Positions 2 through 58,659 of a DNA stretch of 64,000 bases are shown piece after piece. A program made the position numbers and the translations under genes. This DNA comes from an uncultured virus (IMG/VR IMGVR_UViG_3300032288_004103). Its lineage: Duplodnaviria > Heunggongvirae > Uroviricota > Caudoviricetes. The notes beneath the pieces are model-generated. The model was given only the letters and a program-made list of their open reading frames with translations. It searched no databases and had not been told where the DNA came from. The number at the start of each line of letters is the position of its first letter. The first letter of the stretch is position 1. Location of the stretch: the IMG/VR virus record IMGVR_UViG_3300032288_004103. The stretch is one strand, 5' to 3'.

Positions 2-2194
2 TTAGGTATAAGTTCTCACGCAGAAGGTAATTTTACAACATCAATAGGAGATTATTCTCACACTGAAGGTAGATTAACAATATCATCAGGACAATATTCT
101 CACGCTGAAGGTAATAATACAACGTCAATAGGAGGTTTTTCTCACGCAGAAGGTAATTTTACAAAATCAATAGGACTATATTCTCACGCAGAAGGTAATA
201 ATACAACTTCAATAGGAGATTTTTCTCACGCAGAAGGTGGTTCAACAACATCATCAGGAGGAACATCTCACGCTGAGGGTAGTCTTACAATATCAATAGG
301 TCCTTGGTCACACGCAGAAGGTTCTAATACTATATCGTTAGGTGATACTTCTCACTCGGAAGGATTTTTAACAACATCAGTTGGCGATTCTTCTCACGCA
401 GAAGGAATACAAACAACTTCAATAGGAGATTATTCTCACGCAGAAGGGTCTGGCACAACATCAGTAGGAATATATTCTCACGCTGAAGGTAGTCTTACAA
501 TATCATCAGGTATTACTTCACATGCAGAAGGTGGTGCTACAACGTCATTAGGTTTTGCATCTCATGCAGAAGGATTTTTAACAACTTCATCAGGTAATTA
601 TTCTCACGCTGAAGGTTTACAAACAACATCAATAGGAATTAGTTCTCACTCAGAAGGTATTTCTACAACTTCATCAGGTAATTATTCTCACGCTGAAGGT
701 AGATTAACAATATCATCAGGAATATATTCTCACGCAGAAGGGCAAGGAACAACATCGTCAGGAGATTATTCTCACACTGAAGGTAGATTAACAATATCAT
801 CAGGACAATATTCTCACGCTGAAGGTCGACAAACAACATCAGTAGGGATATATTCACACGCAGAGGGATTTCAAACAACATCATCAGGAGTAACATCTCA
901 CGCTGAGGGTAGTCTTACAATATCAATAGGTCCTTGGTCACACGCAGAAGGAAGTCAAACAAACTCAGTAGGTGATACTTCTCACTCAGAAGGATTTTTA
1001 ACAACATCAGTTGGCGATTCTTCTCACGCAGAAGGTTTAAATACAACATCATCAGGAGATTATTCTCACTCAGAAGGTAATAGTACAAAAGCATTAGGTT
1101 TTATTTCTCACGCTGAAGGATATTTAACAACATCATCAGGTAATTATTCTCACGCAGAAGGTTTAAATACAACCGCATTAGGTAATAGTTCTCACGCAGA
1201 AGGTTCTAATACTATATCGTTAGGTAATAATTCTCATTCAGAAGGTTATTTAACAACATCATCAGGAATATATTCTCACGCTGAAGGAAGACAAACAACT
1301 TCAATAGGAGATTATTCTCATTCAGAAGGTTATTTAACAACATCATCAGGAATATATTCTCACGCAGAAGGTCAATTAACAACCGCATTAGGTAATAATT
1401 CTCATTCTGAAGGTGGTGATACATATTCATCAGGTGATTATTCTCACGCAGAAGGATTTTTAACAACATCAATTGGATTTGCTTCACATGCAGAAGGTTT
1501 AAGTACAACTTCATCGGCTAATTATTCTCACGCAGAAGGGTTAGGTACGATAGCTTACGAACTTTACCAACACGTATCTGGACAATATAATAATACTACT
1601 AACGCAAATCAGTATTTTATAATTGGTAACGGAACATCAAATGCAACTAGATCAAATGCGTTTAGAGTAGATTCCGCAGGTAATGTATACGGTGCTGGTG
1701 CAACATATAACTCAGGTGCGGATTATGCAGAATACTTTGAGTCTTTATCGGGAGACTCAATACCTTACGGTACTGTTGTAGAATTAGAAGATGGTAAAAT
1801 AAAAGTTTGTACTGACTCAAATAATGCGATAGGTGTTATTTCGTCAAATCCAACTCTAATAGGTAATAATGAAGAAGGTACTGCTGATGAATGGGTTGGT
1901 AAATACGATAAAGACGAGTGGGGTAAATACATTATGGAAGATTATACATATGAAATGATAGATTATATAGATAGTAGTGGCAATACATTCTATAAAACAG
2001 TAACAAGTCAACGACCAAAAATTAGTGATAATTATGATCCTAATGTACAATACATACCAAGATCACAAAGACCCGAGTGGAACGTAGTTGGTTTAGTGGG
2101 TCAAGTTAGAATTTTAAAAAATCAACAAATACCTAATAGATGGATTAAAATGAAAGATATAAATAACGATATCGCTATTTATTTAATTAGGTAA
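2..2194 (+). CDS. Tail fibre/spike (5'-truncated): YadA-head-like 14-aa SHAEG repeats plus C-terminal Peptidase_G2 intramolecular chaperone
   Basis: Frame from base 2 (LGISSHAEG...) is the same frame as track ORF 1934..2194. It has 37 S-H-[AST]-E-G repeats at 42-bp period, then FIIGNGTSNATRSNAFRV, GADYAEYFE and RPEWNVVGLVGQV, typical of the phi29 gp12-type autocleaving chaperone domain. Confidence 0.85.
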   Translation, partial: LGISSHAEGNFTTSIGDYSHTEGRLTISSGQYSHAEGNNTTSIGGFSHAEGNFTKSIGLYSHAEGNNTTSIGDFSHAEGGSTTSSGGTSHAEGSLTISIGPWSHAEGSNTISLGDTSHSEGFLTTSVGDSSHAEGIQTTSIGDYSHAEGSGTTSVGIYSHAEGSLTISSGITSHAEGGATTSLGFASHAEGFLTTSSGNYSHAEGLQTTSIGISSHSEGISTTSSGNYSHAEGRLTISSGIYSHAEGQGTTSSGDYSHTEGRLTISSGQYSHAEGRQTTSVGIYSHAEGFQTTSSGVTSHAEGSLTISIGPWSHAEGSQTNSVGDTSHSEGFLTTSVGDSSHAEGLNTTSSGDYSHSEGNSTKALGFISHAEGYLTTSSGNYSHAEGLNTTALGNSSHAEGSNTISLGNNSHSEGYLTTSSGIYSHAEGRQTTSIGDYSHSEGYLTTSSGIYSHAEGQLTTALGNNSHSEGGDTYSSGDYSHAEGFLTTSIGFASHAEGLSTTSSANYSHAEGLGTIAYELYQHVSGQYNNTTNANQYFIIGNGTSNATRSNAFRVDSAGNVYGAGATYNSGADYAEYFESLSGDSIPYGTVVELEDGKIKVCTDSNNAIGVISSNPTLIGNNEEGTADEWVGKYDKDEWGKYIMEDYTYEMIDYIDSSGNTFYKTVTSQRPKISDNYDPNVQYIPRSQRPEWNVVGLVGQVRILKNQQIPNRWIKMKDINNDIAIYLIR
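14..1567 (+). repeat. 42-bp (14-codon) coding tandem repeat, 37 copies
   Basis: tctcacgcagaaggt-type core at 14, 56, ... 1526 (exact 42-bp register); degenerate QHVSG copy at 1568. Confidence 0.95.
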
Positions 2195-2209
2195 AAAGAT
2201 AAAAAACTT

Positions 2210-3871
2210 ATGAGTAATATATACCAACATAATTTTGACAATTGCTTAAAAATGAGATTAAGTAACAGTGACTACTGGGACTTATTTTTATGTTATGATT
2301 GTACAGATGAACAAGATAATAACCAAATATTAGAGGATTGTATATTAGTAGATATAGACATTAATAATGACAATTCATTTTCAGGTGACACTTTATATAG
2401 TTTAACAACTTGGACAGGTGCAACAATTAATGGTAGTGGAATTACTTTAAATGATATAGGATTAACTGGTATCGATAATGGTTTTATAAATTATGATTGT
2501 ACCGCCTCAACAGATAGTCAAATATTTTTATCTGCGTTTACAGGATCAACATTATTTTTATCATCTGCAGATACAAGATTTTCTATGACAAGAGTTACTG
2601 GATGTACATATGATTACCCATTAGAAATAGATATTGATTCATTCGGTAGACACGCAGATTTATGTGGTGGATTTTATCAAGGGTTTTTTAAATTATCGGA
2701 TATAACTTATTTTAAAGAAATTACAGATAATAAATTTACTTGGCCTTTAGAATGGTTTAGATGTCCTACAATATGTAGTGGTGAAACTATAACTGATTGT
2801 TGTGGTACTGGTAGTACTTCTGGACATTCCTGTTCTATTAATCCAAATAAGGCGTACGAATGTTATTTAAATTTAAAACCCGTACCTTATAATTATCAAA
2901 TTTTACCATATAGATTAGGTGGTTTAGATATTCATTGTTTAGATGGTTGGACGGCAACATTTTGGTTAAATAAAAAATCAGAAAGTTGTACAGGTAATAC
3001 TTTAAATAATCTTTACCCAAACAATAAAGGATTTTTCTTTTATATGGGTACCAGATCAGAAAATAAATTTTGGGATTTATTTAGTGGTGAAACTGGTTAT
3101 ACTACCTCATCAGGATATCCTTTACCCCCACCAAAAGAAACTAAACAAGTATTAAATAATAACCCATTTTTAGTTTATCAACCAGGAGGGTGTGGTTGTT
3201 TTACGGGTATAACTACTGAAATTACACAAGAAAAAGATAGAAACGCAGATATTGTAGATAATGCGTTAGGATTTAGAATTAAAGATGATGGAAGTATCGG
3301 ATTTAGATCAGTTGTTATGACAGGAGTTTGTTCGGCAGTTACCGCAACAACAATAATAGATTGTTATAATAAATGCGGGTGTGGAAATACAGGAACAACT
3401 ACCGCAACATCGGTAACCACAAAATATATTACAGGAACTAGTATATATGAATGTTATAGTGATTCAGGATTAATTAATACCGATGTCTGGAATCACGTAG
3501 CAATAAGATTTAAACCTTATGAACAATATACTAAATGTGAATTAGTTAACATACCTAAAAGAAAAGGTGTTTTAACTGTCTATGTAAATGGTTATCTTAA
3601 ATGGACTTTAGAGGATTTTGATGAATTTATTTTTAGAGAACTGGATGAATATAGAGAAAAACAACAAGGAGTACCTTTTAATTATAGTTTTGGGGGTGGA
3701 ACGCAAGGTTTAATAGAATCAAATACTGTTAATGGTCCTGACATAAAAGATAACAATTTAGTAATACAAAATAATTTTGCAGGTACTTTTGAAGGTAAGG
3801 TATCTAAATTTAGATTATATGGTTGTTCTTTAGATATAACCACAATAAGAGCAGAAATTAATAATGTTTGA
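2210..3871 (+). CDS. Cys-rich virion structural protein with LamG/concanavalin-A-like domain
   Basis: 553 aa; WNHVAIRF..LTVYVNG..FEGKVSKFRLY are LamG-like strands; many Cys; follows the fibre gene. Confidence 0.6.
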   Translation: MSNIYQHNFDNCLKMRLSNSDYWDLFLCYDCTDEQDNNQILEDCILVDIDINNDNSFSGDTLYSLTTWTGATINGSGITLNDIGLTGIDNGFINYDCTASTDSQIFLSAFTGSTLFLSSADTRFSMTRVTGCTYDYPLEIDIDSFGRHADLCGGFYQGFFKLSDITYFKEITDNKFTWPLEWFRCPTICSGETITDCCGTGSTSGHSCSINPNKAYECYLNLKPVPYNYQILPYRLGGLDIHCLDGWTATFWLNKKSESCTGNTLNNLYPNNKGFFFYMGTRSENKFWDLFSGETGYTTSSGYPLPPPKETKQVLNNNPFLVYQPGGCGCFTGITTEITQEKDRNADIVDNALGFRIKDDGSIGFRSVVMTGVCSAVTATTIIDCYNKCGCGNTGTTTATSVTTKYITGTSIYECYSDSGLINTDVWNHVAIRFKPYEQYTKCELVNIPKRKGVLTVYVNGYLKWTLEDFDEFIFRELDEYREKQQGVPFNYSFGGGTQGLIESNTVNGPDIKDNNLVIQNNFAGTFEGKVSKFRLYGCSLDITTIRAEINNV

Positions 3872-20771: not shown

Positions 20772-21056
20772 ATGAAAATTAGAAAAAACGGGAAAACTAT
20801 TACTTTGTCTGAGACTGATATGAAAAGAATAGTAAAAAAATTATTAAAGGAAAATGAAGATCCTAAAAATGATTTAGTTGTATGTTGTAGTGAAGCAGGT
20901 ATTAAACCACCAGCATCTTGTTTAAGTGGTGACGCTGAAGAGTGTCTTAAAGAAGTTGGTAAAATGGTTATTAATGATCCATTTGGTGTAGGAACTAAAG
21001 CAATTGCAGCATTAAATTGTCTTAAAGATAAATCAAATTCACCAATTAAAAGTTAA
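20772..21056 (+). CDS. Small protein with LSETDMKRIVKKLLKE leader (putative head-internal)
   Basis: 94 aa with shared leader motif and 5 Cys. Confidence 0.6.
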   Translation: MKIRKNGKTITLSETDMKRIVKKLLKENEDPKNDLVVCCSEAGIKPPASCLSGDAEECLKEVGKMVINDPFGVGTKAIAALNCLKDKSNSPIKS

Positions 21057-21061
21057 ATATT

Positions 21062-21424
21062 ATGAAAAAAAGAGTAGTTAGATTAACAGAATCAGATTTA
21101 AGAAGAATCGTAAGACGAGTTATTAAAGAAGATATGGGTGGTATGGACGATAGAGGGGAGTATGACCCTAGATTTTATGCACCATCTCCTGATTATGAAG
21201 AAGGCGAAGAGTGGGGTGAAAAGGAATATGACCCTAGATTTGATGCACCATCCCCTGATTATGAAGAAGACGATGACGATTATAGTGGATTGAAAGATGT
21301 TCATCGTAAATGGTATGATCAAAATATGGGAAAACATAGGGAAGACTCAGAATTTGGAGGGGAGAGACAAAGAAGGTTAAGAAATAGAATGCCTGAAAGT
21401 TATAAAAAATTCAGAAGAAGATAA
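21062..21424 (+). CDS. Small acidic protein with LTESDLRRIVRRVIKE leader (putative head-internal)
   Basis: 120 aa; internal duplication EYDPRF[YD]APSPDYEE. Confidence 0.65.
   Translation: MKKRVVRLTESDLRRIVRRVIKEDMGGMDDRGEYDPRFYAPSPDYEEGEEWGEKEYDPRFDAPSPDYEEDDDDYSGLKDVHRKWYDQNMGKHREDSEFGGERQRRLRNRMPESYKKFRRR
21158..21269 (+). repeat. 46-bp near-identical direct repeat, 66 bp apart
   Basis: Copies at 21158-21203 and 21224-21269. Confidence 0.9.
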
Positions 21425-21496: not shown

Positions 21497-24400
21497 ATGA
21501 AATTGTCACTTTCACAAACGGAAAAAAACAAATTAAAATATTTTTTAAACAAAAAAACAATTTTATCTGAACAAAAATGGTTAGATGATGTAATTGCCGC
21601 AGCTAAAAATGTTAATACCTCATTAATAAAAAATACTGACGTTTTACCATCATTTAATTTTACAAAAAACTTAGATGAACTTAGTACCAAATTTAAAATT
21701 ATAAATGATAATTTAAATTTAAAAAAATTGTTTAAACTTGACGAAATCAATAATAGTAAAAAAATATGGAAAGATACAATTAGTGATTATACAAAATATA
21801 TTTTTAGTAATTCCGATTTAAATGTTGATACTTTAACTAAATACGTAACTAATGAAATTACCGATTTACCTAATGATGTATTAAAAAAATTAACTGATAA
21901 TCAAATATCTATAATATCAGTTTTAAAGGCACAAGATGAAGTTTTTAATTTAGAAATAGATAATACTATAATACAATATAAAAAGTTATTAGATGAAAAA
22001 GTTAAAAAATTTAAAGAAATACATGGGGAAGAAAAATATAAAGAAATATTTGATAATTTAAAAAATAAAAAAATAACATCTGAAGAATTTTTTATAGAGT
22101 TGGATAAGTTAACTCCAGAAAAAAAATCAGTAGAACAAGTTGCTGGAGTAAAATTATCTGATATCCCTAAAGATGAATATGATATTATAGATGCTTCATT
22201 AAAAAAATATGGTTTAGATAAGGATTGGGGTTTTGATTCCAATACTGGTGAACCTGTTTACGTTACATTAAATATTAATGGTGAAAATGTAAAATTTACA
22301 CTAAATAAACAAGGTCCTGAACAGTTTAATAATACAAAAATTAATGATGATGGATTAGAGAATCTATTTAGAGATGAATACGAAAAAACTTTCCCTATCG
22401 CCAATCATATGTATCCACCAAATGTAAGTGGTAATAGACCATATATTTTAGATTGGATTAAATCTGAAAAAATTTTAAAGGATCCTGATTTAAGAAAAAA
22501 ATATGTTTATAGATATGATGTACCTTTGGGTGTTAGGATGTATGCTGATGATGTACAAGGTAATTGGGGTCAGTGGGTAATAATTAATCCTGACGCAATA
22601 AGTAATTACAGAAAACCAAAAAATTTAGAAGAATTAAAAGACAGTATTTTTCATGTGATTTATCATGAATTAACACACGTTGTTCAAAAAGTAAGTAATC
22701 AAAGTTATGCGACATATAAAAGTGGAGGGTTCCAAAGTGGGAAAGAAGCTTGGGGTTATTTAACAGGTAAAAGAACTAAATATTATTATAAAAATGAAGT
22801 AATACCAGGTGAAAAACCATCAGTTCATTTTTGGGATTGGTGGCATTCGGATGAAAATAATGTTGAGACATTAATACGAAAATTTGGTGTGGAAAAAAAT
22901 ATAGATACCAGTAAAGATTATTCTTGGAGGGATGATTTTGAGGAATGGGCATTACAAAATAATGAAGTACCAGAAAAATTTATAATTCAACCAAAAGGAC
23001 AAACTGTTAGTAATGCTAATATAATTAATATGTATGGTGACGATGTTAAAACTAGAGTATTAAGGTGGTTTATAAAAGATTGGGAAAATGTTAATGATAA
23101 TTATAAAAATATAAAAACAAAAACTGAAGGATTAAGTGATGAAAAACTTTTACAATTTATTAATAATAATATAGATATTGAGGAAGTAGATAATATTGTC
23201 AAAAAAGTTGCGGAAGAATTATCTTATTGGAGTCATGTTAAAGAAATTGAAGCAGAATTTGCTGCCAACATTAAAAGTTTGATGGAATTAGGCACATTAG
23301 AAAAAAATAAAGGATTTGCAACTTTTTTAGTGGATTATCTTAGAGGTACTAATAAATCTGAAAAGTTAGCAGGAATTAATGTAGAAAAGGCAAGGTATGA
23401 AAATAATTTAGACTTGAGTAAAATAAATCCTAATACTAAGAATCTTGATGATAATAGTAATATTTTAAAAAATTTCTTTAAAAAATTTATAGATTTATTT
23501 TTAAAAAAGAATGTAAATGATGAGGTAAAATTACAAAAAGAATTAAATAGTGTAGATGGTTGGGTTAATAATATACCTAAAGATTTTTTTACTGTATTAT
23601 CTAAATTAGAACAGAATTGGAAAAATGTATATCCAGAACAAGCGAAGAAACTTGAAAAAGATTTATATAGACAAGCATATGAATTAATTTCTAAAGGTTA
23701 TCCAGCACTTTTACCATTTATAATGTCAGGATTAGATGATGTAGAAGAAGAAAATAAAGAGGAAGTTAAAAATGAATCGATTATTTATAAAAAACATTAC
23801 TTAGTAGAATCATTTAGAAAGGCTTACTCATTTGATTGGGACGATAATATCCTTAAAATGTCTACAAGAATACATTTAGAATATAGTGTAAATGGTTTAA
23901 TGTGGGTACCAGTTTCAGTATCAACAGAACAATTTAGAAGTGTTAGAGATAAAATAGGTAAAGAATTTAGATATGTGGGTAATAACATTTTAAATTCTTT
24001 TAAAGATTTTAGAGATTATAATGCGTTTATAAAGGATGTAGAGCAAGCAGTCAGATATAATCAATTTGGTCCTAGTTATAATGATTTTAAAGAGGCATTA
24101 ATTAGTGGTAGTGATTTTTCTATTATTACTGCGAGATCTAATTCACCACAAGCGATTAAAGATGGTATTAAAATTTTAATAAATAAAACTTTTACTAATT
24201 CAGAAATAAAAGAAATGGAAAATAATCTAAATGGAGTTTCAATAGATGATTATTTAACTCTACAAGATTATCACCCAGTATCATCTGAAGAATTTTTAAA
24301 TAAGTTTGGTTTAGATGTAAGTAGTACAAAACCAGAAAAAGGTAAGGAAATTGCGTTTAAAGATTTTGTTAATAGGGTAATTAAACAAATAGAAAAAATA

Positions 24401-24586
24401 AAAGATGATCCTAATTTTGAGGGTATTAGTGTAGGATATAGTGATGATGATGTTAGTAATGTTAAGACAATTGAAGAATTAATAAAAAATGAATTACAAA
24501 AATTATATCCACAAATTAATTTTATTGTTTACGATACTTCCGATTCTAAAAACCCAAAAAAGAAAAGAATTGTTATAAAAAAATAA
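21497..24586 (+). CDS. Multidomain protein: leader, helical N-domain, zincin (HExxH) metallopeptidase, C-terminal HAD-like phosphatase
   Basis: HELTH at 22664-22678 with downstream EIEAE; FDWDDNIL at 23831, IITAR and GYSDDD are HAD motifs I, II and IV. Confidence 0.65.
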   Translation: MKLSLSQTEKNKLKYFLNKKTILSEQKWLDDVIAAAKNVNTSLIKNTDVLPSFNFTKNLDELSTKFKIINDNLNLKKLFKLDEINNSKKIWKDTISDYTKYIFSNSDLNVDTLTKYVTNEITDLPNDVLKKLTDNQISIISVLKAQDEVFNLEIDNTIIQYKKLLDEKVKKFKEIHGEEKYKEIFDNLKNKKITSEEFFIELDKLTPEKKSVEQVAGVKLSDIPKDEYDIIDASLKKYGLDKDWGFDSNTGEPVYVTLNINGENVKFTLNKQGPEQFNNTKINDDGLENLFRDEYEKTFPIANHMYPPNVSGNRPYILDWIKSEKILKDPDLRKKYVYRYDVPLGVRMYADDVQGNWGQWVIINPDAISNYRKPKNLEELKDSIFHVIYHELTHVVQKVSNQSYATYKSGGFQSGKEAWGYLTGKRTKYYYKNEVIPGEKPSVHFWDWWHSDENNVETLIRKFGVEKNIDTSKDYSWRDDFEEWALQNNEVPEKFIIQPKGQTVSNANIINMYGDDVKTRVLRWFIKDWENVNDNYKNIKTKTEGLSDEKLLQFINNNIDIEEVDNIVKKVAEELSYWSHVKEIEAEFAANIKSLMELGTLEKNKGFATFLVDYLRGTNKSEKLAGINVEKARYENNLDLSKINPNTKNLDDNSNILKNFFKKFIDLFLKKNVNDEVKLQKELNSVDGWVNNIPKDFFTVLSKLEQNWKNVYPEQAKKLEKDLYRQAYELISKGYPALLPFIMSGLDDVEEENKEEVKNESIIYKKHYLVESFRKAYSFDWDDNILKMSTRIHLEYSVNGLMWVPVSVSTEQFRSVRDKIGKEFRYVGNNILNSFKDFRDYNAFIKDVEQAVRYNQFGPSYNDFKEALISGSDFSIITARSNSPQAIKDGIKILINKTFTNSEIKEMENNLNGVSIDDYLTLQDYHPVSSEEFLNKFGLDVSSTKPEKGKEIAFKDFVNRVIKQIEKIKDDPNFEGISVGYSDDDVSNVKTIEELIKNELQKLYPQINFIVYDTSDSKNPKKKRIVIKK

Positions 24587-24656: not shown

Positions 24657-25145
24657 ATGGCTGATTTATTAATGAGAATGCCTGTTCCTTACGAACCGCT
24701 AAGAAAGAATAGGTTTATTTTGAGATTTCCAGATGAATTGGGAATTCAAGAATGGTGGGTATCTACAACAAGCCGACCAAAATATACGAGTCAAGAGGTA
24801 GAAATACCTTTCCTAAATACATCTACTTATGTAATTGGTAGATTTAACTGGGAATCTATTTCTGTAACATTTAGAGACCCAATAGGACCTTCGGCAACAC
24901 AAGCTTTGATGGAGTGGGTTCGTTTACACTCTGAATCAGTTACAGGTAGACAAGGATATGCAGCGGGATATAAAAAAGATGTAGAATTAGAAATGTTAGA
25001 CCCAACAGGAGTTGTTGTTCAAAAATGGATTTTACAAGGTACACAACTTAATGATGTTGACTTTGGTTCATTAGATTATTCATCTTCTGACTTAGCTGAT
25101 ATTACAGCAACACTTCGTTTCGATAGAGCAATCAATGTATTCTAA
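24657..25145 (+). CDS. gp19: Tail tube protein
   Basis: EPLRKNRF, RPK..EIPFLN, WESISVTFRD, LDYSSSD..ITATLRFD. Confidence 0.9.
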   Translation: MADLLMRMPVPYEPLRKNRFILRFPDELGIQEWWVSTTSRPKYTSQEVEIPFLNTSTYVIGRFNWESISVTFRDPIGPSATQALMEWVRLHSESVTGRQGYAAGYKKDVELEMLDPTGVVVQKWILQGTQLNDVDFGSLDYSSSDLADITATLRFDRAINVF

Positions 25146-25246: not shown

Positions 25247-26191
25247 ATGAGAAACAATATTTTAAACCTAAAAGAAGAAATTTTAAGAATTAAATCTTTA
25301 TTTACTGAAGAGAGAATGTTTGGTAATTTAGTTGAGGATGATCCAGGATGTCAATGCGATGATCCAAAAAAGGAAAAGTATGGAAAATATAATCCAACGA
25401 CTAGTCAATGTGATCCTAAACTATGTGAAAATAAAGATAAAGATGGTAAAAATGTACCCGCACCTTTAGCAGATAAAGCTAAAAATATGAATTTTAAAAC
25501 TAAAGCAGATGCTCAAGGAGAAAAAGAGGAAATGAAAGCAGATTATCAAGAAAAGAAAACTGATTATAAATTAGATGAAAAGAGTTGTAAAGATCATTTA
25601 AAATATATGATAAAAGGTACTAGATCTGGAAAAACAAAAGAAATGTATCAAAAGACGGCAAATAAAAATGGTGGTACCGATATGGATGTTTTTGTATGGT
25701 GCATGAAAAATCATTCAGATAAATGGCAAAATAGAAACGATGGTAATTTACCTTGGCAAAAAACAGATGAAATTAGAAGATTATACGATACTTTAAGTTT
25801 ACCAATGCCTAAATGGTTATCCGCTAGAGCAGACGATGGTGAGACTAGTGACGATCAACAAATAACTAATGATTTTTATGATGAAGAAGGTGCAGAAGGT
25901 GGCGGAAGTGGAAGAATTGTAGTAAAAAATGATGCGGGTAGAAAAATAGCAATTATACATCGTAAAGGTACAGAAAATAAATGGACATTTAGAACACCAA
26001 TAAAATTAAAAAATGCAATACCATTAATAGATAAATCAGATAAAGGAAATATTAAATTTAGGGATACGTATGTAAATGATATATATAAAAGATTAAATAT
26101 TGATCCTAAAAAACAAAGAATAGTAATTCAAAAAGCAATCGAGACAGATGGATATGATCAAGGTACCTTTGTTTTAAAAAATTTAGAGTAA
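25247..26191 (+). CDS. Hypothetical protein with LKEEILRIKSLFTEERMFGNLVE leader
   Basis: 314 aa; leader recurs inside the next gene. Confidence 0.65.
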   Translation: MRNNILNLKEEILRIKSLFTEERMFGNLVEDDPGCQCDDPKKEKYGKYNPTTSQCDPKLCENKDKDGKNVPAPLADKAKNMNFKTKADAQGEKEEMKADYQEKKTDYKLDEKSCKDHLKYMIKGTRSGKTKEMYQKTANKNGGTDMDVFVWCMKNHSDKWQNRNDGNLPWQKTDEIRRLYDTLSLPMPKWLSARADDGETSDDQQITNDFYDEEGAEGGGSGRIVVKNDAGRKIAIIHRKGTENKWTFRTPIKLKNAIPLIDKSDKGNIKFRDTYVNDIYKRLNIDPKKQRIVIQKAIETDGYDQGTFVLKNLE

Positions 26192-26206: not shown

Positions 26207-29200
26207 ATGAAAAAAAAAATTTTCATAACAGAAAATCAGTATAAAAGAATTTTTTTAAATGAGGCTGATGTGAATCCTGTATGGAATCCCCATATACGTA
26301 TGTATACACATCCCGCTTATAGTGATTATGTAGATGTACCTAAACAATTTATTTATATAAAAAATTCACAAGGTAAATGGGTTCAAAAATATAGTGCGGT
26401 AGATACTTACGGAAAAAAACAAGATGTGAGTATAGATGATCCTGATGTTGCAAAAGAAAGGATGAAAGCTTATAATCAAGAAACATTTAAAAAATATATT
26501 AAAAATCAAACTGATGGAGATAAATTTAGAAAATGGGTTAATGATACTGAATTTCCAGAAAGACTTAAAAAAGTAAATTTAGCACTTAAATCTAATGGGT
26601 TAACAGGTGGATTTTCTATAAGTGGTCCATATGATAATAACTATATGGAAATCGCTTTCAATAGTATAGGACAATTTTATTTACTTGATTTAGATACAAA
26701 AGAAAAAGAAAAAAAAGAAGAATTAAAAATAGTAGGGCAAGACGTAAATAATTTTGTAGAATATAAATACTATTTAGAAGCTTTAAAAACTTGGAATTCT
26801 AGTAATAAAGTTTACGGTTGGAAATCAACTAAAAGTGTAAGTTCGGAAAATATAAAAAATTTTTTAGAGGGTAAAATTTCTGTATCAACTTGTATAGATC
26901 CAAAATATATTTTAGAAAAAATGGTTTTATTAAGAAATAAAATGATTTCCAATGCTATGGGTCAAAATAAAATGTCTTATGAAGATGCTAACGCATTATT
27001 AACAAGAAGAACTTTTGACGATAAATTAAAAAATTATTTTAAGGAAATAGTACTAACACCACCTATGAAATTACCTGAAATAAAACCACCTAGTTTATTT
27101 GATGACAATGGAGAACAAAAAATAGATTATACAGGAGGATTAGGTCATTCATATTTTAAAAGAGTGGAGTTAGCAAAAACAATACAATTAAAAAATCAAA
27201 AATCATATGAAAAGGCTACAAAAGACTATAACGCAGATAAAGAATTAAAAGCAATATTAGATAAATTAGGTACAGAATTTAAAGAATCATTAATAGATTA
27301 CAATACTTATGATGTTGTTTTAGAAAAAATAAATCTACATAATATAACTATATCTAACCAAACTGTAGAAAAATTAGAAAATGCTTGTGAAGATCCTGTT
27401 TACAATGTAAAATCATTTGAGGCTGGTTACGGGGCTAGTGGTGGAGGGGGATCATCAACAAATGTGGATGAAACTTTTAAATGGAGTGATGCTTGTAAAA
27501 ATAGTGGTGGAATTTTTATGTATCCACAACAAAATATTAACAAAACAAATGGACTAACACAAATGGGTATTATTGGTGGTAAAGTTAATTGTTGTTGTGT
27601 TAATCCTACAGGTAAATCTACTGTTACTGTAGATGGTGCGGAAGGTGATTATTCTGTAGAAATAGATATTAAAGAATGGTGTCAAAAAAGTAGTGGTGAT
27701 GTTAGAGGTGGATTAGAAAAATTTAGTCAATGGACTATAGATTGTTCTAATGATTGGCATTGTATTGCAGATATTGCTTCTATAGTATCTTTAGTATTTG
27801 GACCAGCAGGTTTAATAATAGGTGGGGTAATAGATTTAGTAAGTGCTATTGGATATGTAGTAGAACAAGATGAGGGGTGGAAATTAAACGCTGGTTTAAC
27901 AATATTAGGCGCATTTGGTGGTTTGGGTGAGGCTATCAGTTTATCTAAAGGAGGAATAAAATTTTCAAGTAAATTAGTTAATCTTTCTAAAGAATTAAAG
28001 TTAGTTGAAAACGATCCTATACTTACTAGAAAATTACTTAAAACATTTGCGGAAGGTTTATCTGAGGTAGAAAAAAAACAATTTAAAAATTTTGGTAAAG
28101 TGGCATTAAGTCAAGATATTTTATTAAAATTCGGTAAGGGGGGTGAGTTTTTAAATGAAGTAAACAAACTATCAAAATTAGAACAAGGGATTCTTAGTGA
28201 TATGTTAAAAAAAGAAACTCCTGAAGAAATACAAAAATTATTTAAAAAATCTGGTAAAGATTTACAAAAAACAGTTAATAGTTATTTTAAAGGGATAAAA
28301 CAAGTAGTAATTCAAGGTTCTTTATTTGCTGGAATGTATGTATATAGTGAAGAAATAGGTTTATTTTTAAAAGATTTAAACGATAAGTATGGTTTAGATC
28401 CTTTAGGTATATTTGATGGTAGTGGGAACATTAATGCTGAGGTAGATAAAAATAAAAATATTGATTTTACTAGAATTATTAGTAATAGTGATATAAAAAA
28501 TCTTTTAAAACCTGATGGATCAAATTCTGAGTTTAAAAGTAAATTTACTCAGGTAAGTGCCAACTATTATGAATTATATCTTCTATCTAGAAAAAAAATG
28601 ATAGATGATCAAGAAATATTAAATTTATTATCAAAATTAGATAAAACTATAAAAGATCATGTTTATGGTATAGGATTAAATTTAGAAAAATTCAGTCAAC
28701 CTTTAAATATAGGTGCAGAAGTTTGTAAAAAAATACAAGAAAATTTAAGTAAAGAAGAAATAAAAAAATTATTAAATGAAGCTATTATTTCTGTAAGTAG
28801 TTTACCTAAAACTAAAATAGATAACTCTACTAAAGAAATGATTTTAAAAACTAATAACCCTAATTTGAGTGATGATGAAGTATTAGATTTATTAGATTTA
28901 TTAGGTTCACCAGAGGATGTTAAAAAAGATGAAAATAATACACCTGAAAATCCACCACAAAAAGTTGATGAGAATATGAAAAAATTAAGCGAAGAATTAA
29001 AAAGAATGAAATCTCTATTTACAGATGAAAGATTATATGGTAATTTAGTAAATGAAGATTTTGCAACCGATACTAATGGAGACGGTAAAATTGACGAACC
29101 AGAAGCAGTTGAATTTTTAAGAGGTAAAGGTTATGTATTGAGAGCTAAAAGTGAAAGTGATGTCTGTTTGAGACCTGGAACACTTCTTAAAAGTTTCCAA

Positions 29201-29767
29201 ACAAATTATAATAGCGAACCAGTTAATTTTGAATTATGGAATTCTAATATTGGTTGTGCATTAACAGTCTTTAGAAAAAATAAAATACCAGGACATTTTT
29301 ATAAATTAAACTTATTTGAAGGTTCTAGTGGAACAAGATTTGCATTATATTATTATGTTGGTAATGCAAATTGTTGTGATACAACAGTTTTAGGTAGTTA
29401 TGACTTTAATGCGTTTGTCGACAAATACGATTCAAATACATATACTTTTGGTGTGGATTTAAAATATATAAAAATAGAGGGTTTTTGGAGTACTTCAGGT
29501 ATAGATTTTAAATGTGAAGATATGGTTATAAAAAATCTTTTAGATAATAAATTTAACCCAGTAAGTTCAAAAATTTCTGGTGGTATATTAACGTCACATA
29601 CCGATTTAGGTTTTAGAAGTAATGAACCTACACAATTAATGGAATTACAATGGATGAAAGATTCAACAGGTAACTGTATTAAAGTTAAAGATTTTGTAAA
29701 TCAAGAAATGGGTAAACCATATACAGATGTTTTTGGTATGGATGAAATAATAGAATTATTAAAATAA
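26207..29767 (+). CDS. Large modular protein: leader, Gly-rich hydrophobic hairpin, internal second leader, EF-hand loop
   Basis: 1186 aa; ITENQYKRIFLNE; IADIASIVSLVFGPAGLIIGGVIDLVSAIGY; LSEELKRMKSLFTDERLYGNLVNE; DTNGDGKIDEPE. Confidence 0.65.
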   Translation: MKKKIFITENQYKRIFLNEADVNPVWNPHIRMYTHPAYSDYVDVPKQFIYIKNSQGKWVQKYSAVDTYGKKQDVSIDDPDVAKERMKAYNQETFKKYIKNQTDGDKFRKWVNDTEFPERLKKVNLALKSNGLTGGFSISGPYDNNYMEIAFNSIGQFYLLDLDTKEKEKKEELKIVGQDVNNFVEYKYYLEALKTWNSSNKVYGWKSTKSVSSENIKNFLEGKISVSTCIDPKYILEKMVLLRNKMISNAMGQNKMSYEDANALLTRRTFDDKLKNYFKEIVLTPPMKLPEIKPPSLFDDNGEQKIDYTGGLGHSYFKRVELAKTIQLKNQKSYEKATKDYNADKELKAILDKLGTEFKESLIDYNTYDVVLEKINLHNITISNQTVEKLENACEDPVYNVKSFEAGYGASGGGGSSTNVDETFKWSDACKNSGGIFMYPQQNINKTNGLTQMGIIGGKVNCCCVNPTGKSTVTVDGAEGDYSVEIDIKEWCQKSSGDVRGGLEKFSQWTIDCSNDWHCIADIASIVSLVFGPAGLIIGGVIDLVSAIGYVVEQDEGWKLNAGLTILGAFGGLGEAISLSKGGIKFSSKLVNLSKELKLVENDPILTRKLLKTFAEGLSEVEKKQFKNFGKVALSQDILLKFGKGGEFLNEVNKLSKLEQGILSDMLKKETPEEIQKLFKKSGKDLQKTVNSYFKGIKQVVIQGSLFAGMYVYSEEIGLFLKDLNDKYGLDPLGIFDGSGNINAEVDKNKNIDFTRIISNSDIKNLLKPDGSNSEFKSKFTQVSANYYELYLLSRKKMIDDQEILNLLSKLDKTIKDHVYGIGLNLEKFSQPLNIGAEVCKKIQENLSKEEIKKLLNEAIISVSSLPKTKIDNSTKEMILKTNNPNLSDDEVLDLLDLLGSPEDVKKDENNTPENPPQKVDENMKKLSEELKRMKSLFTDERLYGNLVNEDFATDTNGDGKIDEPEAVEFLRGKGYVLRAKSESDVCLRPGTLLKSFQTNYNSEPVNFELWNSNIGCALTVFRKNKIPGHFYKLNLFEGSSGTRFALYYYVGNANCCDTTVLGSYDFNAFVDKYDSNTYTFGVDLKYIKIEGFWSTSGIDFKCEDMVIKNLLDNKFNPVSSKISGGILTSHTDLGFRSNEPTQLMELQWMKDSTGNCIKVKDFVNQEMGKPYTDVFGMDEIIELLK

Positions 29768-32173: not shown

Positions 32174-32953
32174 ATGGAAAATGTATCACAAAATTTAGAT
32201 CCTAATTTTATTCCTGAGGAATATAGGACACCTTACGATTTAATAGAATTACCTTCACAAGGTATTTTATATAAAAATAATAAAAAAAGCGTTAAAGTAG
32301 AATACTTAACCGCTATGGATGAAAGTATTATTTCATCACCTAATATATCTAGCGGTAATAAATTAATTGATATCTTATTAACAAGAAAGGTTAAAGATTT
32401 AGGGTTTAATCCTGAAGATTTACTTGTTGGTGATAGAACCGCTTTGATGGTATTTTTGAGAGTTACCGCATTTGGGGAAGAGTATAAACAATTAGTATTT
32501 GACCCAAAACAAGGTGATTTTGTTGAGGCTATCATAGATTTATCTACTTTATCTCAAAAAAAATTGACGATAAAACCTGATGAGAATGGTGAATTTGAAT
32601 TTATATTACCAAAAACAAATAAAAAAGTAACTTTTACTCTTTTAACTGGTAAGGACGAAGAGATAGTTGATATGAGGGATAATGAATTTAAAAAAAGAGA
32701 TCCTGATGGAGTATCTAATAAATTAATGTTTTTATTAGAACAACAGATAAAATCTATTGATGGTGACAGAGATAAAATAAGAATTTCTAACGTTATTAAA
32801 AAATTACCTATCATAGATACTAGGTCATTAAGGAAATATATAAATGAAATAACACCAGGATTAGATTATAAAACTACTGCAAGGACTCAGGGGGGAGAGT
32901 CCTTAAATACCTTTCTTAGATTTGGGAGCAATTTTTTCTGGCCTGAACTCTAA
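32174..32953 (+). CDS. Baseplate hub assembly/tail chaperone (T4 gp26-like)
   Basis: IELPSQG..Y, YLTAMDESI, LLVGDRTALMVFLRVTAFGEEY, ends FFWP. Confidence 0.75.
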   Translation: MENVSQNLDPNFIPEEYRTPYDLIELPSQGILYKNNKKSVKVEYLTAMDESIISSPNISSGNKLIDILLTRKVKDLGFNPEDLLVGDRTALMVFLRVTAFGEEYKQLVFDPKQGDFVEAIIDLSTLSQKKLTIKPDENGEFEFILPKTNKKVTFTLLTGKDEEIVDMRDNEFKKRDPDGVSNKLMFLLEQQIKSIDGDRDKIRISNVIKKLPIIDTRSLRKYINEITPGLDYKTTARTQGGESLNTFLRFGSNFFWPEL

Positions 32954-56775: not shown

Positions 56776-58659
56776 ATGAAAAATCTTTTAGAAGAAATAC
56801 AAAGAATGAGATCCCTTATGGTATATGAAAAGGGAACTATTCTTAATGAAGTAAGTACATCTTCTGTTGGTAACCCACCAACCCCTACAGATAAAAAACC
56901 TGCAGAAAATAAACCTGTCGATTCAGAAAAACCTGCAGAAAATAAACCTGTTGATTCAGAAAAACCTAAATCTTCGGATACTAAATGTATGTTTGTTACT
57001 AATACAGAACCTTATAAAACCGATAATGATGTAAATACTGACGTACCTATTAAATTTAAAGATAAATTTATAGAATTGGTAGAAAAAGAGTTTGGGTCAA
57101 TGACAAACGGTGAGTTAACTTTAGAAGATGTAAATGTATTTGGTGGGGCTAGTAATTTTTATGGTAGTGCAGTACAACCAGACTATTGTAATGAATATGA
57201 TGTAACTAAAGGTACTTCATCTTTACAAAAATGGAGTAGTAGTTGTAAAGGTTATGACGCTAAGAAAAAATATACAAATACTGGTGGTAGTAAAAGTAAT
57301 AGAGATTTAGCGTATAGAAGAGCAGAAAAAGTAAAAAAAGAACTATTAAAAAAATTAAAAGAAGCTGGTATAGAAAGACAAGTAAAGTTTGATGAGGCTA
57401 AAATAATGAAAGAAATAAAAGACTCAACTTCAGGATCAGTTTATACTAAAGATTTAACAGATACACATAAATCAGTTTCTAATGAAATAAAGGCAGGTAC
57501 TTTAAATCATGGACAATTTGTGATGATAGACGCTAAGGTATGTTTTAAATTTTATGACCCTTGTCCTAATTGTATGATTAGAGATGTTGAAACAAAAAAA
57601 TGTAGATGTAAAGATGGTTTAACTGAAAAAGATGGTAAATGTTATTGCCCTAATGGTAAAGAAGCTGATGAAAATTGTGAATGTAACACATGTACAGATC
57701 CTTGTATGACATTTAATAAAGAGACTAAAAAATGTGATTGTCCTGAAGGAATGACATATAATGAAGAAACTAAAGAATGTGAATGTCCTAAAGGTTTTAC
57801 AAAAACAGAAAATTGTGAGTGTAAAAAGAAAGAAGAAGAACCTTGTCCTGATAAATGTATGAAACGTGATGAGGATGGTAAATGTAAATGTCCTGAAGGT
57901 ATGAAATTTAATGAGGAAACTCAAAAATGTGATTGTCCTGAAGGGTTCATTAAACCAACCGCAGATGCGTGTAATTGTGTTAAACCAAAGCCACCATTAA
58001 AATGTGGTTTTGAATCTAAAATAGAGGGAGGTAGAGGTACAAAACAAAATAATTTTGTGGCAAAAAGTTTAAAAAGTAGTTTTCCTGCGGGTGAGGGTAA
58101 TTCTATAACAATTTCATTTGACTCAGTAGTTGTACCTGATGCCTATTACATTAAATATGGTGATCAAGAATACTTTAGTGGTTTTAGAGGTGATGTAGTA
58201 AATGATGAATATACACAAGTTGCGTTAAGTGTTGAAGAAAAGAAAAAGATGTTACCGATACAATCTACTTATGTGAAAGGGTTAATTAAACAATCATTAT
58301 CGAATGGGGATAATGATTATAGTGAAATGAATAATGTTCGTAGAAATTTTGTTGGTGAATTAATTATCTATAAAAAAACTGAAGGTTTATTAGAAAGTAT
58401 AAATGCAGCAATTAAAGGTGAAGGTGGTAAGTTAGATGTTAAAAGTATTTTTCAAGACGGAGATAATAGTGCAGAAAGTATTACCGATGAAATTATAAAG
58501 ACTGGAAATATAAAAGACAATATTGTTAAATATAAAGGTATTATGAAAACAAATGCTTCTTTTACAATTGATAAAGAAACAGAAAAATTTGATCTTATTA
58601 TTTTAGTATTTTCACCATTAGATAGAACTATATTTAACATGTCTGTTAAATGTGAATGA
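56776..58659 (+). CDS. Leader-bearing protein with OmpA-like segment and Cys-rich repeats
   Basis: Likely start MKNLLEEIQRMRSLM at 56776; GGASN..NRDLAYRRAEKVK; repeated C-x-C-P-[EK]-G units. Confidence 0.65.
   Translation: MKNLLEEIQRMRSLMVYEKGTILNEVSTSSVGNPPTPTDKKPAENKPVDSEKPAENKPVDSEKPKSSDTKCMFVTNTEPYKTDNDVNTDVPIKFKDKFIELVEKEFGSMTNGELTLEDVNVFGGASNFYGSAVQPDYCNEYDVTKGTSSLQKWSSSCKGYDAKKKYTNTGGSKSNRDLAYRRAEKVKKELLKKLKEAGIERQVKFDEAKIMKEIKDSTSGSVYTKDLTDTHKSVSNEIKAGTLNHGQFVMIDAKVCFKFYDPCPNCMIRDVETKKCRCKDGLTEKDGKCYCPNGKEADENCECNTCTDPCMTFNKETKKCDCPEGMTYNEETKECECPKGFTKTENCECKKKEEEPCPDKCMKRDEDGKCKCPEGMKFNEETQKCDCPEGFIKPTADACNCVKPKPPLKCGFESKIEGGRGTKQNNFVAKSLKSSFPAGEGNSITISFDSVVVPDAYYIKYGDQEYFSGFRGDVVNDEYTQVALSVEEKKKMLPIQSTYVKGLIKQSLSNGDNDYSEMNNVRRNFVGELIIYKKTEGLLESINAAIKGEGGKLDVKSIFQDGDNSAESITDEIIKTGNIKDNIVKYKGIMKTNASFTIDKETEKFDLIILVFSPLDRTIFNMSVKCE
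56894..56967 (+). repeat. 33-bp tandem repeat (KPAENKPVDSE x2)
   Basis: Copies at 56894-56926 and 56927-56959 with one mismatch, plus a partial third copy. Confidence 0.9.

Follow-up and report, generated by a model that had tools for sequence, protein, structure and literature searches.

A shared tag at the joint of a fused gene in an uncultured T4-like virus: a predicted two-cargo polyprotein for the phage head

The closest described systems are those of phage T4. IPI-III carry a 10-aa N-terminal CTS, a tag that is common to unrelated late proteins and is removed by the protease gp21 at a Glu-specific [IL]-x-E site (PMC9026906, PMC9958956). The gp21 sites given in the T4 literature are ITE-6, LTE-619 and probably LIE-9, and gp21 removes both ends of T4 Alt (PMC5694885, PMC9026906); the account in PMC5694885 poses as an open question why Alt has a propeptide at each end. 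The T4 capsid protein, gp23, is cut at residue 65 (PMC9958956). The ejection proteins of SPN3US and phiKZ, which are cut at A/S-x-E, have multiple Glu sites per propeptide, and many head proteins are processed; in SPN3US, all cuts identified in that account, except the protease's own, removed N-terminal propeptides (PMC10052503). For DarB of phage P1, a signal of ~30 aa suffices to load a large protein (PMC9024508).

Here we describe a fused gene in the window, by which we mean the whole stretch of DNA that was analysed: the first 64 kb of a 116-kb linear virus record with 27.6% GC. Its product has two parts, the N-cargo and the C-cargo, joined by a 24-aa peptide, tag B (Table 1). By analogy, the tag system would work like the T4 CTS and gp21, although it is not a strict member of that class, being longer and not only N-terminal. 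Like the T4 CTS, tag B is a short tag common to unrelated proteins, ends in [IL]-x-E, and occurs in a clade with a gp21-family protease. In contrast to the strictly N-terminal T4 peptide of ~10 aa, tag B has a site at each end and is N-terminal, internal or C-terminal in orthologs; the two are likened by layout, not by sequence. To our knowledge, the T4 capsid address is known solely as an N-terminal peptide.

Like T4 Alt, the N-cargo is large and is predicted to carry propeptides at both of its ends. The C-terminal piece of Alt is 63 aa long, whereas the downstream piece here is a 236-aa folded domain that has its own gene elsewhere (PMC5694885). The SPN3US and phiKZ system is alike in its multiple Glu sites but differs in motif and phage group (PMC10052503). 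DarB is likewise loaded by a short signal; it is one protein with an N-terminal signal, and the account in PMC9024508, as far as it goes, reports no common tag family. The contribution of this locus is a series of orthologs with the tag in three positions, and a methionine that tracks the downstream cargo. These orthologs are ready constructs for testing the position-independence of capsid addresses and polyprotein processing in heads. If the mechanism proposed below is true, the tag would also offer a linker that can be cut out again once several proteins have been loaded into the same capsid.

Table 1. Positions, in the window, of the fused gene, its parts and the genes around it.
Feature	Position	Strand	Remarks
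Tail tube gene	24657..25145	+	Left border of inserted block; PHROG 4542, E 3.6e-26
Upstream tagged gene	25247..26191	+	Tag B at its N-terminus, 25268-25336
Fused ORF, 1186 aa, 134 kDa	26207..29767	+	Order: leader A, N-cargo, linker, tag B, C-cargo
Leader A, 19 aa	26207..26263	+	Predicted propeptide; sites ITE-9 and LNE-19
N-cargo, ~101 kDa	26264..28972	+	Own gene in split relatives
Conserved Gly-rich hydrophobic segment	27719..27946	+	Hydropathy peak 2.09 at aa 523
Acidic/Pro linker	28889..28975	+	Sequence not conserved among homologs
ATG, Met924	28976..28978	+	Codon 924 of the 1186-aa ORF; start codon in split relatives
Tag B, 24 aa	28985-29056	+	Opens LSE, closes LVNE; predicted head-loading propeptide
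C-cargo, 236 aa, 26.7 kDa	29057..29764	+	Alpha/beta domain, two invariant Cys
Single Dx[DN]xDG loop	29069-29104	+	Position 12 is Glu; predicted to bind Ca2+; not in all family members
Baseplate hub gene	32174..32953	+	Right border of inserted block

A gene fused at a shared tag

The first-pass annotation had noticed, inside the long ORF, an in-frame copy of the N-terminus of the upstream gene, preceded by an acidic and proline-rich linker. Both observations hold. Residues 923-951 of the fused protein match residues 4-32 of its upstream neighbour at 17/29 positions (E 5e-7), the sole significant match between the two proteins. When 36,038 windows of the 116-kb contig were scored with a PSSM, the tag copies of these ORFs came first and second (33.7 and 31.8), and third place went to gene 56776, with 19.4. 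The linker is present but its sequence is not conserved; it is the former gene end and a spacer. The fused ORF has no match in PHROGs, NCBIfam or Pfam (none above cutoff in the latter), nor among 50,697 GenBank phage records.

Two trivial explanations were rejected. A missed stop codon before 28976, which the annotation had raised, or an assembly error is ruled out by an independent contig from another study (run X2) than that of the possible source run X1, which covers 28581-29468 gap-free and with a single substitution, by the same open frame in locus L002 (96% identity over 11.6 kb), and by homologs that read through (37-63% identical), four of which, at 39-63% identity, are also fused. Chance repetition as the origin of the tag copy is ruled out by the E-value, the PSSM ranks and the size of the tag family, which has 397 proteins.

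An initial search found a standalone homolog of the C-part with 268 aa (35% identity, 98% cover). With a wider profile we recovered 41 distinct loci, of which 20 are fused; in the other 21 the C-part is a separate tagged gene, which answers the annotation's question of whether relatives encode the C-terminal ~260 aa on their own. Because the parts of this one ORF are separate genes elsewhere, comparison of the loci identifies it as a fusion of two tagged cargo genes. An N-cargo homolog lies directly upstream of the C-part in 16 of the 21 standalone loci. The remainder comprise two without an upstream ORF (one of them at a contig end), two with the tube gene, and no N-cargo, ahead of the C-cargo (L059 and L099), and one after another gene; for P0001, P0005 and P0027 the standalone state is taken from the protein record alone. 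With the N-part profile, 10 of 12 matches are 892-1199 aa long: besides the near-copy of the window's protein, eight have 1154-1199 aa, and the 892-aa match is on a 4-kb contig.

In the C-cargo tree, which is unrooted and in which the L087 row (a wrong ORF) was disregarded, a branch with SH-aLRT 98 separates ten distant split loci from all other rows, and the 18 fused rows are interspersed with four split groups. Six switches between the fused and the split state are required, and starred branches force three of these. The simplest reading of this topology is a single fusion followed by repeated re-splitting. Re-split loci are of two kinds. L034 and L038 have frames with a 13-nt overlap. L031, L033 and L043 carry the tag twice: the N-cargo ORF terminates immediately behind one copy, and 4 nt past that stop the C-cargo begins with its own. 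The copy at the C-terminus of the N-cargo lacks the methionine in these three loci and in P0165. The upstream ORF of L053 also ends in a tag, but has no N-cargo match.

The tag belongs to a large family. A profile built from 60 rows matches 397 proteins at E<=0.001 among 1.84 billion, and the family is mostly found at the start of unrelated late proteins in T4-like aquatic phages. The best 150 of the 397 matches give 139 N-terminal, 13 internal and one C-terminal placement; of the internal ones, two are start overcalls, two are second copies near the N-terminus, and the others are this fusion. The 104 N-tagged cargos fall in 36 unlinked BLAST groups. In orthologs the tag stands at the N-terminus or within the protein, and in some relatives that have re-split, the upstream protein ends with it. 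Columns 1-3 are L/I-x-E in 64 of 65 tags (V in one), column 21 is L/I, column 22 mostly V/I and column 24 mostly E (37/65, after V/I at 22), often with further sites beyond. We found no cultured T4-like Bacteroidota phage carrying the tag among GenBank phage records, and no published account of it in the literature searched.

Other copies and look-alikes were seen. A tag variant with the third-best score in the contig opens a 627-aa protein with Cys-rich repeats (56776-58659), and the fourth-best score belongs to a tag-like helix near a C-terminus (aa 234 of 277; G000 C1 103896-104729). L048 2975-5863, P0020 and P0021 have two copies of tag B each, either N-terminal and internal or both near the N-terminus.

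Predicted cut sites and head genes

Tag B is bounded at its start and its end by [IL]-x-E, the cut motif of T4 gp21. We propose, with a probability of about 0.58, that the fused gene encodes a two-cargo polyprotein: the tag at the joint would load the full-length protein into the prohead, where a gp21-type protease would free two proteins. The fusion of two genes that are neighbours in relatives has kept the start peptide of the second gene at the joint, and this peptide likely loads the full-length protein. We predict cleavage after [IL]-x-E at either end of the tag by a protease of the T4 gp21 type, releasing proteins of ~101 kDa and ~27 kDa that could then be ejected. After the cut, the loop of the C-cargo would sit four residues from the new N-terminus.

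On its own the motif points only weakly to cutting, because [IL]-x-E occurs at 1.4% of positions; the fused protein has 16, which counts against the proposal, as does the poorer fit of VNE than of LNE to the T4 motif. Six of the sites are kept in at least four of five homologs, and three of these six are in the two tags. Both sites of leader A are kept in 5/5 aligned fused homologs, and leaders resembling it are found on other genes of the contig. A further count against a two-cargo polyprotein is that a C-terminal tag is missing from 13 of the 16 N-cargo homologs in split loci.

Neither a protease gene nor a capsid gene was found on the 116-kb contig, which is an estimated 36% complete. The head genes considered here are therefore borrowed from a relative, G001, a relative with four blocks at 76-81% DNA identity. 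G001 carries Peptidase_S77 (E 4e-24) and Gp23 (E 2e-71), together with a scaffold-like gene and two full tags. Its capsid protein has LLNE at residue 60, the predicted end of its propeptide and near the position at which T4 gp23 is cut. The best tag-like window of the scaffold is its C-terminal helix (residues 422-431 of 435, score -1.4), but hhalign gives no significant likeness between the tag and the scaffold tail (E 0.37).

A broader idea, which we put forward tentatively, is that tag B is a position-independent, self-removing capsid address, that is, a docking helix between two protease sites that could work N-terminally, internally or C-terminally. The copy at the joint would then tag both cargos, and a retained ATG would give the 1:1 polyprotein plus extra short form and would let lineages flip between the fused and split states.

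The internal ATG

How is the C-cargo made? The first-pass annotation had offered a polyprotein and an internal start at 28976 as alternatives. Relatives support both, and the two are not exclusive; the annotation had missed the [IL]-x-E on both sides of the tag and the C-terminal tags. A fairly unlikely explanation is that the locus consists of nested in-frame genes: the C-cargo would come chiefly from ATG 28976, the long form would matter only as an N-cargo with a long C-terminal extension, and any cut would be a simple trimming step. A methionine stands at -2 or -3 before the tag in 24/26 fused rows and, with four more rows, in 25/30, versus 0/5 C-terminal copies (Fisher p 0.0008, for rows that are kin, with three of the five from one clade). 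The variable spacing (MKL, MKKL, MNI) fits a start codon better than a helix position. Moreover, 17 internal ATGs outscore 276 control ATGs (median 0.4 vs -4.8, p 4e-5), with a matrix that partly reflects AT richness, and the mean number of A residues at -3/-6/-12/-13, start determinants taken from PMC6847099, is 2.39 at internal ATGs versus 2.31 in real starts.

ATG 28976 itself has A at -3 and -13 in an unstructured region. However, its score ranks at the 46th percentile among control ATGs and at the 2nd among real starts, and an out-of-frame ATG lies at -8, as in 7/18 fused rows versus 13% of 301 starts. The ATATTTAT-type motif is absent from the 120 nt upstream. Judged by this context, ATG 28976 is possibly a weak internal start in the window genome. 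Five fused homologs from at least two lineages, placed on a tree from which L053 was dropped (long branch) and five near-duplicate rows were left out, have no methionine at -2 or -3, although two have one at -9 and -14; in these five homologs the long form is the simplest source of the C-cargo.

The homologs without the methionine thus favour release by cutting, whereas its retention in 25/30 rows, which is superfluous for a pure polyprotein and counts against one, speaks for an internal start that has survived. In many lineages, some short form is probably still made from the old ATG. Since the context of ATG 28976 is mixed, the predicted cutting is the likelier main route in the window genome. 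In the clade as a whole, cutting and internal start probably both operate, with cutting the general route.

The cargos and their surroundings

The annotation had described a canonical EF-hand loop after the tag. The 12-residue loop stands, and the EF-hand does not. DTNGDGKIDEPE at 29069-29104 has ligands at 1, 3, 5, 9 and 12, and nothing else in 36,911 aa of the contig matches the loop pattern. The Pfam EF-hand_1 match reaches 15.4 bits, below the cut-off of 25.4, and is confined to model positions 10-27 of 29, with no entering helix matched. The modelled mature C-part has coil at 1-14, helix at 15-24 and no second loop with which the first could pair. A relaxed version of the pattern follows the tag in 20/126 distinct segments and in 9/31 C-cargo rows; in 21 rows a short Cys-containing form takes its place, and the sister loci L031 and L043 differ in the loop. 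That the ligand positions are kept even in distant homologs suggests that this is a true Dx[DN]xDG site, which probably binds Ca2+ without an entering helix and is accessory. The calcium loops of that family are alike in D-x-N-x-D-G, Ile at 8 and Glu at 12, and in being gained and lost among homologs, often as loop insertions; here a single loop, a predicted Ca2+ site, has a new structural context (PMC3123361). As described there, such motifs are biased to extracellular proteins. The invariant Cys residues and the Ca-type loop are in keeping with a location outside or in the periplasm (PMC3123361), which would fit head loading only after ejection and so counts against it.

A first model of the C-cargo (7 rows, pLDDT 68) had no Foldseek match in PDB or BFVD, and a second (32 rows, pLDDT 90.3, pTM 0.83) had none at E<=0.001 in PDB. 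The best structural match is the immunity protein TriTu (VIA Z 6.9, rmsd 3.2, 86 aligned), but common arrangements reach a Z of this size too, and Mediator and designed barrels tie with TriTu, so we assign no fold. By sequence, the C-cargo has no usable atlas match, and PDB searches gave nothing below E 0.1. For the N-cargo, an atlas cluster (0.84) gives a weak lead to PT-TG; there is no Pfam PT-TG match at E<=1, and no toxin domain was found. The hydrophobic segment of the N-cargo possibly serves membrane insertion, suited to the time after ejection. Both cargos are outside known families.

The contig has a T4-like myovirus tail module, marked by sheath, tube, hub and tape-measure genes. The fused ORF sits in a three-gene block between the tube and hub genes, which are adjacent in the cultured phage immuto_2-6A. 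This placement, away from the head module, counts against head loading. It would be expected if the tag were instead a docking helix for the tail, the baseplate or a chaperone and the protein an uncut tail-associated component, for which the conserved Cys and Ca-type loop, suited to a virion surface, and the lack of significant likeness to the scaffold tail also speak. We consider this improbable, however, since the tag opens cargos of 36 unlinked groups and is bounded by a motif that recurs where the propeptide of the capsid protein is predicted to end, and immuto_2-6A builds its tail without the block genes. Very improbable is an ejected polymorphic-toxin-like N-cargo fused to an immunity or chaperone C-cargo for a 1:1 ratio, an idea compatible with head loading and in line with the Gly-rich hydrophobic segment with its PT-TG lead, the adjacency kept in 16/21 split loci and the TriTu match, but opposed by the missing Pfam match and toxin domain, by the ordinary Z-score and by L059 and L099, where the C-cargo stands after the tube gene and the N-cargo is missing.

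The datasets that best match the window sequence are lake and marine metagenomes; no RNA dataset is among those listed. AT-rich starts without Shine-Dalgarno motifs, and tube-protein matches (34% to the tube protein of Flavobacterium phage immuto), point to a Bacteroidota host. The upstream tagged gene and its counterpart in L002 (4041-5144) are 97% identical over the first 65 aa and 24% over the remainder, within a 96%-identical locus: the cargo has been swapped and the tag before it has stayed constant.

Several other features of the contig were noted. A second fusion is present at 21497-24586, the final ~270 aa of which are a separate leader-bearing gene in L006 (2592-3413) and L008; its joint carries KNE and LVE sites. 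The L002 counterpart (1009-3390) stops at 793 aa, and its end peptide resembles its own N-terminal leader. At least ten further genes, at 20772-21424 and G000 C1 89867-111688, open with short basic leaders ending in [IL]-x-E, and such leaders on the contig fall in two or three classes. The motif ATATTTAT, spotted by eye, recurs upstream of 17883, 21497, 24657, 25247, 36551 and 58716, and is likely a late promoter. An intergenic element of ~100-150 bp (L135 ~2880-3060; G000 C1 ~102900-103060) has many matches in four related records, at 70-84% identity. Finally, the repetitive low-complexity minus-strand frames at 1-1900 of the window probably just mirror a repeat-rich gene on the plus strand that the contig start truncates.
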